DNA of 64,000 bases from Escherichia coli (GCF_003334405.1 NZ_QOWM01000006.1), one strand, 5' to 3'. Numbered from the stretch's first letter, positions 28,475 through 30,162 are shown. A program made the numbers and translations. Notes: a model not told the origin generated them from the letters alone.

Positions 28475-29272
28475 ATGCAGGAATACACGAATCATTCCGA
28501 TACCACTTTTGCACTGCGTAATATCTCCTTTCGTGTGCCCGGGCGCACGCTTTTGCATCCGCTGTCGTTAACCTTTCCTGCCGGGAAAGTGACCGGTCTG
28601 ATTGGTCACAACGGTTCTGGTAAATCCACTCTGCTCAAAATGCTTGGCCGTCATCAGCCGCCGTCGGAAGGGGAGATTCTTCTTGATGCCCAACCGCTGG
28701 AAAGCTGGAGCAGCAAAGCGTTTGCCCGCAAAGTGGCTTATTTGCCGCAGCAGCTTCCTCCGGCAGAAGGGATGACCGTGCGTGAACTGGTGGCGATTGG
28801 TCGTTACCCGTGGCATGGCGCGCTGGGGCGCTTTGGGGCGGCAGATCGCGAAAAAGTCGAGGAAGCTATCTCGCTGGTTGGCTTAAAACCGCTGGCGCAT
28901 CGGCTGGTCGATAGTCTCTCTGGCGGCGAACGTCAGCGGGCGTGGATCGCCATGCTGGTGGCGCAGGATAGCCGTTGTCTGTTGCTCGACGAACCGACCT
29001 CGGCGCTGGATATCGCCCACCAGGTTGATGTGCTGTCGCTGGTGCACCGTTTAAGTCAGGAGCGTGGCCTGACGGTCATTGCCGTGTTGCACGATATCAA
29101 TATGGCGGCACGCTACTGTGATTATCTGGTCGCCCTGCGCGGCGGTGAAATGATTGCTCAGGGAACGCCTGCGGAAATTATGCGCGGCGAAACCCTCGAA
29201 ATGATTTATGGCATCCCGATGGGTATTTTGCCGCATCCGGCGGGTGCTGCACCTGTGAGTTTTGTTTATTGA
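28475..29272 (+). CDS. fhuC: ferric hydroxamate ABC transporter ATP-binding protein
   Basis: Track ORF trimmed to ATG at 28475 (265 aa, MQEYTNHSDTTF...); Walker A GHNGSGKST, signature LSGGERQR. Confidence 0.93.
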   Translation: MQEYTNHSDTTFALRNISFRVPGRTLLHPLSLTFPAGKVTGLIGHNGSGKSTLLKMLGRHQPPSEGEILLDAQPLESWSSKAFARKVAYLPQQLPPAEGMTVRELVAIGRYPWHGALGRFGAADREKVEEAISLVGLKPLAHRLVDSLSGGERQRAWIAMLVAQDSRCLLLDEPTSALDIAHQVDVLSLVHRLSQERGLTVIAVLHDINMAARYCDYLVALRGGEMIAQGTPAEIMRGETLEMIYGIPMGILPHPAGAAPVSFVY

Positions 29273-30162
29273 TGAGCGGCTTACCTCTTATTTCGCGCCG
29301 TCGACTGTTAACGGCGATGGCGCTTTCTCCGTTGTTATGGCAGATGAATACCGCCCACGCGGCGGCTATTGATCCCAATCGTATTGTGGCGCTGGAGTGG
29401 TTGCCGGTGGAATTACTGCTGGCGCTCGGCATCGTGCCTTACGGCGTGGCGGATACCATCAACTATCGCCTGTGGGTCAGCGAACCACCATTGCCGGACT
29501 CAGTGATCGACGTCGGTTTGCGCACAGAACCTAACCTTGAACTGCTGACCGAAATGAAACCATCGTTTATGGTCTGGTCGGCAGGATATGGCCCTTCACC
29601 AGAAATGCTGGCTCGTATTGCGCCGGGTCGCGGATTTAACTTCAGTGACGGCAAACAGCCGTTGGCGATGGCGCGTAAATCGCTGACGGAAATGGCAGAT
29701 TTACTTAACCTGCAAAGCGCAGCGGAAACGCATTTAGCGCAATATGAAGACTTTATCCGCAGCATGAAACCCCGCTTTGTGAAGCGTGGTGCGCGTCCGT
29801 TATTGCTGACGACGCTTATCGATCCGCGCCATATGCTGGTCTTCGGTCCAAACAGCTTGTTCCAGGAAATTCTTGATGAGTACGGCATCCCAAATGCCTG
29901 GCAAGGGGAAACCAACTTCTGGGGCAGTACCGCCGTCAGTATCGATCGTCTGGCGGCGTATAAAGACGTTGATGTGCTCTGTTTTGATCACGACAACAGC
30001 AAAGACATGGATGCGCTAATGGCAACGCCGCTGTGGCAGGCCATGCCGTTTGTCCGCGCCGGACGCTTTCAGCGCGTACCTGCAGTCTGGTTTTATGGTG
30101 CGACGCTCTCGGCAATGCACTTTGTGCGCGTTCTGGATAACGCCATCGGAGGTAAAGCGTGA
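29272..30162 (+). CDS. fhuD: ferric hydroxamate periplasmic binding protein
   Basis: 296 aa from ATG 29272 (MSGLPLISRRRLLTA...); twin-arginine-like signal; overlaps fhuC stop (TGATG). Confidence 0.92.
   Translation: MSGLPLISRRRLLTAMALSPLLWQMNTAHAAAIDPNRIVALEWLPVELLLALGIVPYGVADTINYRLWVSEPPLPDSVIDVGLRTEPNLELLTEMKPSFMVWSAGYGPSPEMLARIAPGRGFNFSDGKQPLAMARKSLTEMADLLNLQSAAETHLAQYEDFIRSMKPRFVKRGARPLLLTTLIDPRHMLVFGPNSLFQEILDEYGIPNAWQGETNFWGSTAVSIDRLAAYKDVDVLCFDHDNSKDMDALMATPLWQAMPFVRAGRFQRVPAVWFYGATLSAMHFVRVLDNAIGGKA

Follow-up and report, generated by a model that had tools for sequence, protein, structure and literature searches.

Short stop/start overlaps between hpt and dnaE of Escherichia coli: routine operon junctions that permit translational coupling

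Overlapping stop and start codons in the window

Eight of the 47 same-strand adjacent gene pairs in the window, the whole stretch of 64,000 nucleotides analysed here, have overlapping coding sequences. The overlaps are real, routine and already known, and represent the commonest well-described spacing in E. coli operons. We consider it probable that they are ordinary operon junctions, in which upstream stop and downstream start have 1, 4 or 8 nt in common and the mechanism of coupling varies from one junction to another. An overlap permits translational coupling and does not demonstrate it; for the pairs described here, coupling is plausible.

Megablast searches with window positions 1-21000 and 20000-44000 against complete E. 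coli genomes returned 100% matches in many strains, K-12 MG1655 among them. The window is a K-12-like chromosome segment that runs from hpt to dnaE. RefSeq/PGAP annotation was transferred onto it from three near-identical E. coli records, and all 60 complete coding sequences (CDS) transferred in this way (hpt to rnhB) were intact ORFs. Seven stop/start overlaps had been listed in the original prediction; each was read in the sequence where it had been placed, and the RefSeq CDS ends were identical. An eighth overlap, of 8 nt at 35307-35314 between yadW and erpA, was absent from that list. So were the +3 junctions skp/lpxD and fabZ/lpxA, functionally in one spacing class with the overlaps, and five further pairs at +11/+12, which belong to the same or a neighbouring class. 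Bases shared between stop and start, in the form of NTGA, TRATG or an 8-nt overlap, were read directly at all eight junctions. The junctions, together with the features of fhuD that the text refers to, are as follows:

29270-29274, plus strand: fhuC stop (TGA)/fhuD start (ATG), -1 overlap TGATG with one base in common, from the sequence and the RefSeq CDS ends
29272-30162, plus strand: fhuD CDS, 296 aa, an intact ORF overlapped at both ends
30159-30162, plus strand: fhuD stop (TGA)/fhuB start (GTG), -4 overlap GTGA, from the sequence and the annotation
30148-30152, plus strand: fhuB Shine-Dalgarno sequence GGAGG, within fhuD, dG -10.8 kcal/mol
2399-2402, plus strand: yadG stop/yadH start, -4 overlap ATGA, with a second ATG at 2402 and an upstream AGGAG Shine-Dalgarno sequence, dG -8.5
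16426-16429, minus strand: pcnB stop/folK start, -4 overlap ATGA, with a moderate Shine-Dalgarno sequence, dG -6.2
35307-35314, plus strand: yadW (21 aa) stop/erpA start, -8 overlap, from the RefSeq annotation
37152-37159, minus strand: mtnN stop/btuF start, -8 overlap ATGGCTAA; btuF is without a Shine-Dalgarno sequence, dG -2.8
62043-62047, plus strand: lpxA stop/lpxB start, -1 overlap TAATG; lpxB is without a Shine-Dalgarno sequence, dG -2.4
63190-63193, plus strand: lpxB stop/rnhB start, -4 overlap ATGA

In its spacing pattern, the window matches what has been published for the E. coli genome as a whole. Spacings from -8 to +6 were found for 10 of the 47 same-strand pairs (21%), compared with 707 of 2,987 unidirectional pairs (24%) in the whole genome (PMC10666635). 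The commonest spacing in E. coli is -4, followed by -1 and -8 (PMC10666635; review PMC12548453).

Conservation of the fhu junctions and choice of start codons

To compare the fhu junctions between species, a collection with one genome per species was scanned with FhuD as a query, which yielded 80 Enterobacteriaceae loci with FhuD 72-98% identical. Junction counts are given out of 81 sequences, and species conservation refers to the 80 other Enterobacteriaceae species. The fhuC/fhuD junction read T(G/A)ATG in 81/81 sequences (56 TGATG and 25 TAATG), and the fhuD/fhuB junction read RTGA, again in 81/81 (45 ATGA and 36 GTGA); the -1 and -4 spacings, respectively, were unvarying in the 80 species. 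At the same loci, the non-overlapping fhuA-fhuC spacer occurred in 12 lengths (44-56 nt, plus one of 512), and the first eight residues occurred in 60 forms in FhuD and 48 forms in FhuB, with codon indels. Since this spacer and the downstream N-termini drift while the junctions stay constant, we conclude that the overlap is held fixed amid changing surroundings. The conservation is partly explained by the stop and start codons each being essential, and that part needs no coupling. In three Citrobacter species, the N-terminus of FhuB is replaced by an unrelated stretch of ca. 25 residues (VSRKLEMP...), and the GTGA overlap is still present.

The trimmed start positions chosen in the original prediction were borne out by the conservation of the fhuD and fhuB starts in 81/81 sequences, by the position of most of these starts as the first in their ORFs, by agreement with RefSeq, and by the N-termini of BtuF and FhuD. 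The fhuD ATG at 29272 was present in all 81 sequences. A TTG at 29269, which is the fhuD start in a mechanical ORF list, occurs only where T is the final base of the codon before the fhuC stop; since the TTG is produced solely by that T, ATG 29272 is the conserved fhuD start. The FhuD N-terminus, MSGLPLISRRRLL..., bears an RRR motif, and the annotated start puts the conserved SRRRLL motif near the N-terminus of the protein. The fhuB RTG was the first start of the ORF in all loci but one, in which the alignment is frameshifted. With ATG 37159 as its start, BtuF has a normal signal peptide, as judged from the N-terminal sequence. The overlapping starts of lpxB and rnhB were the only or the first candidates in four enterobacterial genera, and the starts of yadH, folK, btuF and erpA rest on RefSeq annotation, ORF structure and N-terminal sequence.

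It is very unlikely that the overlaps are annotation artefacts, with the true downstream starts lying further 3' and the genes not overlapping. Other in-frame starts do exist (an ATG at codon 16 of FhuD, the yadH ATG at 2402, and early TTG and GTG codons in fhuB), but they are inconstant, unlike the fhuD ATG and fhuB RTG kept in 81/81 sequences. A FhuD start at codon 16 would delete the conserved SRRR motif. In six of the eight pairs, no start codon of the ORF precedes the overlapping one, and RefSeq uses the same starts; fhuD and yadH each have a second candidate start one codon away that still overlaps (by 1 nt in the case of the second yadH ATG). Even less credible is a meaningless chance co-occurrence of stop and start triplets. 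The bare motif is indeed common, because TGA after A, G or T always makes a triplet resembling a start, and 14 of the 60 stop codons in the window have one at -4 or -1. Eight of these 14 open ORFs of just 2-60 aa, and the motif alone is therefore weak evidence. The remaining six, however, open ORFs of 159-660 aa, all of which are well-known genes, so a motif combined with a long ORF separates real junctions cleanly from chance triplets. Spacing also argues against chance. Among the 23 pairs at -10 to +40 nt, six had a spacing of -4 or -1 versus 0.96 expected (binomial P = 3e-4), and eight had a spacing of -8, -4 or -1 versus 1.4 expected (P = 5e-5), the null in both cases being uniform spacing, which is crude. 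The junctions are, moreover, kept across species, and ORF lengths together with conservation rule out the chance reading.

Operon membership

The original prediction took the overlaps as support for operon membership, and we agree that the members of each overlapping pair probably belong to one operon, a view with good support; the amount of mRNA nonetheless drops 6.7-fold from lpxA to lpxB. Because the genes overlap, there is no room for a terminator plus a promoter between them. Across genera, both the order of the genes and the junctions are kept, and matches to promoters and terminators were at background: scans of the fhu and lpx regions with consensus promoters and terminators gave counts at the level of shuffled sequence (5 vs 4.4, 10 vs 7.7; 4 vs 3.7, 6 vs 6.3). 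The whole fhuCDB operon has been expressed from a single upstream vector promoter (PMC8660799).

A terminator-like hairpin with a T-run is present at 29240-29256, at the end of fhuC and 16-32 nt upstream of the fhuD start. Covariation gave it no support, and the coding of the FhuC C-terminus, PVSFVY, accounts for its conservation; as a terminator it was set aside.

Shine-Dalgarno sequences and RNA structure at the overlapped starts

Pairing of the Shine-Dalgarno region was strong for fhuB (dG -10.8 kcal/mol) and yadH (-8.5), moderate for folK, rnhB and erpA (-5.6 to -6.2 kcal/mol), and essentially absent for fhuD (-2.2), lpxB (-2.4) and btuF (-2.8 kcal/mol). No difference in Shine-Dalgarno strength was observed between the overlapped genes and the other genes (mean -5.6 vs -5.2 kcal/mol, p=0.87). 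The fhuB Shine-Dalgarno sequence was kept as GG(A/G)GG in nearly all 80 species; it also encodes the Gly-Gly of the FhuD C-terminus, ALGGKA.

The predicted cost of unfolding the start region (-18 to +10) averaged 11.9 kcal/mol for the eight overlapped starts versus 8.0 kcal/mol for the other 52 (p=0.006), and equalled that of random intragenic positions (12.5 kcal/mol, p=0.58; an in silico comparison with n=8). Being predicted to be as structured as coding sequence, the overlapped starts would lack the usual openness and should gain from an upstream ribosome. Over the fhuD and fhuB starts, RNAalifold analysis of 81 and 80 fhu junction sequences, respectively, detected neither a conserved nor a covarying structure (consensus energies of -2.45 and -4.04 kcal/mol); compensatory changes were seen in 0 and 2 pairs, and the start codons were unpaired. 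A conserved inhibitory structure at the downstream start or its Shine-Dalgarno sequence was thus not found at the fhu junctions. Structure of a generic, non-conserved kind, with a predicted cost like that of coding sequence, is possible at the overlapped starts.

The lpxA/lpxB/rnhB junctions

Ribosome profiling had been proposed as a check on coupling. In the published dataset of Burkhardt et al. 2017 (PMC5318159 supplement), the coverage filter was passed, among the genes of the eight pairs, only by lpxA, lpxB and rnhB, and by erpA alone of its pair. The translation efficiency, ribosome density and mRNA level were, respectively, 0.185, 230 and 1241 for lpxA; 0.205, 38 and 186 for lpxB; and 0.435, 71 and 163 for rnhB (PMC5318159 supplement). 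Across the 1-nt lpxA/lpxB overlap, mRNA falls 6.7-fold and ribosome density falls 6-fold, with translation efficiency unchanged. The downstream output is here within the upstream terminating flux (38 vs 230), as termination-reinitiation (TeRe) demands, and equal translation efficiency across a junction that lacks a Shine-Dalgarno sequence fits coupling. A different result was obtained for lpxB and rnhB, where the downstream output is above the upstream terminating flux (71 vs 38). Since ribosomes are 1.9 times as dense on rnhB as on lpxB at similar mRNA levels, at least about half of rnhB initiations are independent of lpxB termination, and strict re-initiation cannot be the sole source of ribosomes on rnhB. 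The profiling data are therefore in line with coupling at lpxA/lpxB and at odds with strict re-initiation at lpxB/rnhB.

No convincing terminator that could account for the 6.7-fold mRNA fall was found at lpxA/lpxB/rnhB (62043-63786); candidate causes are polarity, decay or a 3' end. A rather doubtful idea is that the -1 overlaps without a Shine-Dalgarno sequence (fhuC/fhuD and lpxA/lpxB) act as fixed-ratio step-down couplers, with sparse distal translation exposing the mRNA to Rho-dependent termination or decay. If this were true, a set fraction of terminating ribosomes would restart, which would explain the falls in both mRNA and ribosome density, and the LpxA:LpxB ratio (possibly also that of FhuC:FhuD) would be set without an intergenic signal.

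The lpx junctions were also followed across species. A word-indexed homolog search with LpxB gave matches that, among those listed, were all at least 88% identical, and distant relatives were reached via a representative search. Klebsiella, Cronobacter and Kosakonia have lpxA/lpxB at -1 and lpxB/rnhB at -4. Beyond E. coli, four relatives have lpxB/rnhB at -4, reaching down to 73% LpxB identity. In representatives at 43-73% LpxB identity, gene order was retained and spacing changed: the lpxA to lpxB distances were +25, +45, +11, -4 and +8, and the lpxB to rnhB distances were -4, +66, +7, about -14 and +21, with one locus without rnhB. On this evidence, the exact lpx overlap is a stable state at the family level, which interchanges with short spacers over longer timescales. 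In the long term the exact overlap can be dispensed with, since distant relatives with the same gene order have spacers of +7 to +66 nt in its place.

The databases contain three LpxB-RnhB fusion proteins of 574-580 aa, in which a frameshift in the last ~5-15 lpxB codons enters the rnhB frame (window 63150-63200). They are probably assembly errors or rare variants, because all three stand alone in their clusters and come from metagenome or read-archive assemblies. In these fusions the -4 overlap can be seen to be one indel short of gene fusion.

Translational coupling at the overlaps

All eight pairs, at -8, -4 or -1, lie within the TeRe spacing range of about -8 to +10 nt. In the arrangement that we consider probable, the paired genes would be co-transcribed, and the overlap would set the downstream start within the footprint of a ribosome terminating on the upstream gene. 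At fhuC/fhuD, lpxA/lpxB and mtnN/btuF, where there is no Shine-Dalgarno sequence, downstream translation would hinge mainly on upstream translation, by means of either local termination-reinitiation or immediate loading at a site just opened by the terminating ribosome; fhuD, lpxB and btuF thus most likely depend on the upstream ribosome. At fhuD/fhuB, yadG/yadH, pcnB/folK, lpxB/rnhB and yadW/erpA, initiation at the embedded Shine-Dalgarno sequence would supplement or replace dependence on the upstream gene, and such junctions are at most partly coupled. In the case of YadG/YadH and of the Fhu proteins, whose stoichiometry is FhuC2-FhuD-FhuB (PMC8660799), the arrangement would tie together production of the subunits of one transporter. 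The genes of pcnB/folK, mtnN/btuF and lpxB/rnhB are functionally unrelated, and there the overlap is probably just a stable compact spacing state.

A search of the literature found no experimental test of coupling for any of the eight pairs, and no paper that combines fhuD, fhuB and translational coupling. Native E. coli pairs with -4 spacing have been studied: four of the five were coupled within a -99 to +30 fragment, with the Shine-Dalgarno sequence usually contributing, and bioB/bioF was the one pair without coupling (PMC6728339). Coupling fades within a distance of about 20-40 nt (PMC10666635).

The main competing explanation, which we regard as unlikely and yet as the strongest of the alternatives, is that the overlaps are neutral by-products of compact genomes and that free 30S subunits start translation of each downstream gene de novo, largely or wholly independently of upstream translation. 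An NTG start needs just a following A to yield a TGA stop, and the -4 spacing is probably abundant through ease of evolving (review PMC12548453). Translation-efficiency ratios of overlapping E. coli pairs are about as variable as those of non-overlapping pairs (PMC5318159), and coupling is the same after depletion of ribosome recycling factor, a result that speaks against re-initiation being the dominant route in E. coli (PMC7538156). The uncoupled bioB/bioF pair (PMC6728339), the excess of ribosomes on rnhB over lpxB, the freedom of lpx spacing to change outside Enterobacteriaceae, the usable Shine-Dalgarno sequences of five of the eight downstream genes, and the three pairs that join unrelated functions all point in the same direction. 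Efficient independent initiation is, however, hard to explain for fhuD, lpxB and btuF, which combine the lack of a Shine-Dalgarno sequence with structured start regions. Nor would neutrality account readily for a fhu spacing that is constant in 80 species, next to a spacer and N-termini that drift, or for coupling in four of the five native -4 pairs tested (PMC6728339). We therefore favour ordinary operon junctions with coupling that varies by junction.

Relation to known systems

The window junctions show no structural difference from the published class of -4, -1 and -8 overlaps (Huber et al. 2019, PMC6728339; Huber et al. 2023, PMC10666635; Brown & Wade 2025, PMC12548453). The motifs NTGA, TRATG and NTGNNTRR are identical, the frequency at -8 to +6 is alike (21% here vs 24% genome-wide), and the same mix of embedded Shine-Dalgarno sequences of differing strength is seen. 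Subunits of the same complex are encoded by three of the eight pairs (YadG/YadH, FhuC/FhuD and FhuD/FhuB), compared with 30% genome-wide (PMC10666635). [quoted passage not shown] In the classical pairs coupling has been measured, at 1.7- to 7-fold in the PMC7538156 reporters, whereas for the window pairs we infer it. At the fhu junctions, no conserved RNA structure was found that occludes the start in the manner of rplK-rplA.

The fhuACDB operon described in the FhuCDB cryo-EM paper (PMC8660799) is the same locus, and the authors of that structure remark on the overlaps and propose co-translation. To this, the present analysis adds conservation in 80 species, the lack of a Shine-Dalgarno sequence at fhuD, and the presence of a strong conserved one at fhuB.

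The overlaps had originally been described as routine but useful for annotation, and this assessment holds: they are routine, and their value lies in annotation. They support operon structure and fix the start codons of fhuD, fhuB, btuF, lpxB and rnhB; they advance no open question. Upstream disruption or recoding is likely to have polar effects on fhuD, lpxB and btuF, which is relevant to knockouts, CRISPRi and synthetic refactoring.

Other features in and around the window

Two small proteins are annotated in the window. One, yadW (21 aa, 35249-35314), overlaps the erpA start by 8 nt, and its product has been detected by epitope tagging (PMC6001520); the other, yadX (15 aa, 33745-33792), ends 11 nt ahead of clcA. 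From their position, both look like upstream ORFs and could affect translation of the gene that follows. The pcnB gene is annotated with a non-canonical ATT start (17821-17823, minus strand), and the mechanical ORF list starts it at TTG 17844.

Three Rfam matches scored over the gathering score:

48457-48543: t44 RNA, upstream of rpsB
49382-49491: CssrA sRNA, between rpsB and tsf
39541-39586: HtrA 5'-UTR thermometer, upstream of degP

In strain CP8-3_Sichuan (NZ_CP053736.1, 11907-14123), an IS1 insertion/deletion removes most of the yad fimbrial operon, from yadC to part of htrE. The lesion corresponds to window positions ~8400-14123, and the operon is intact in the window.
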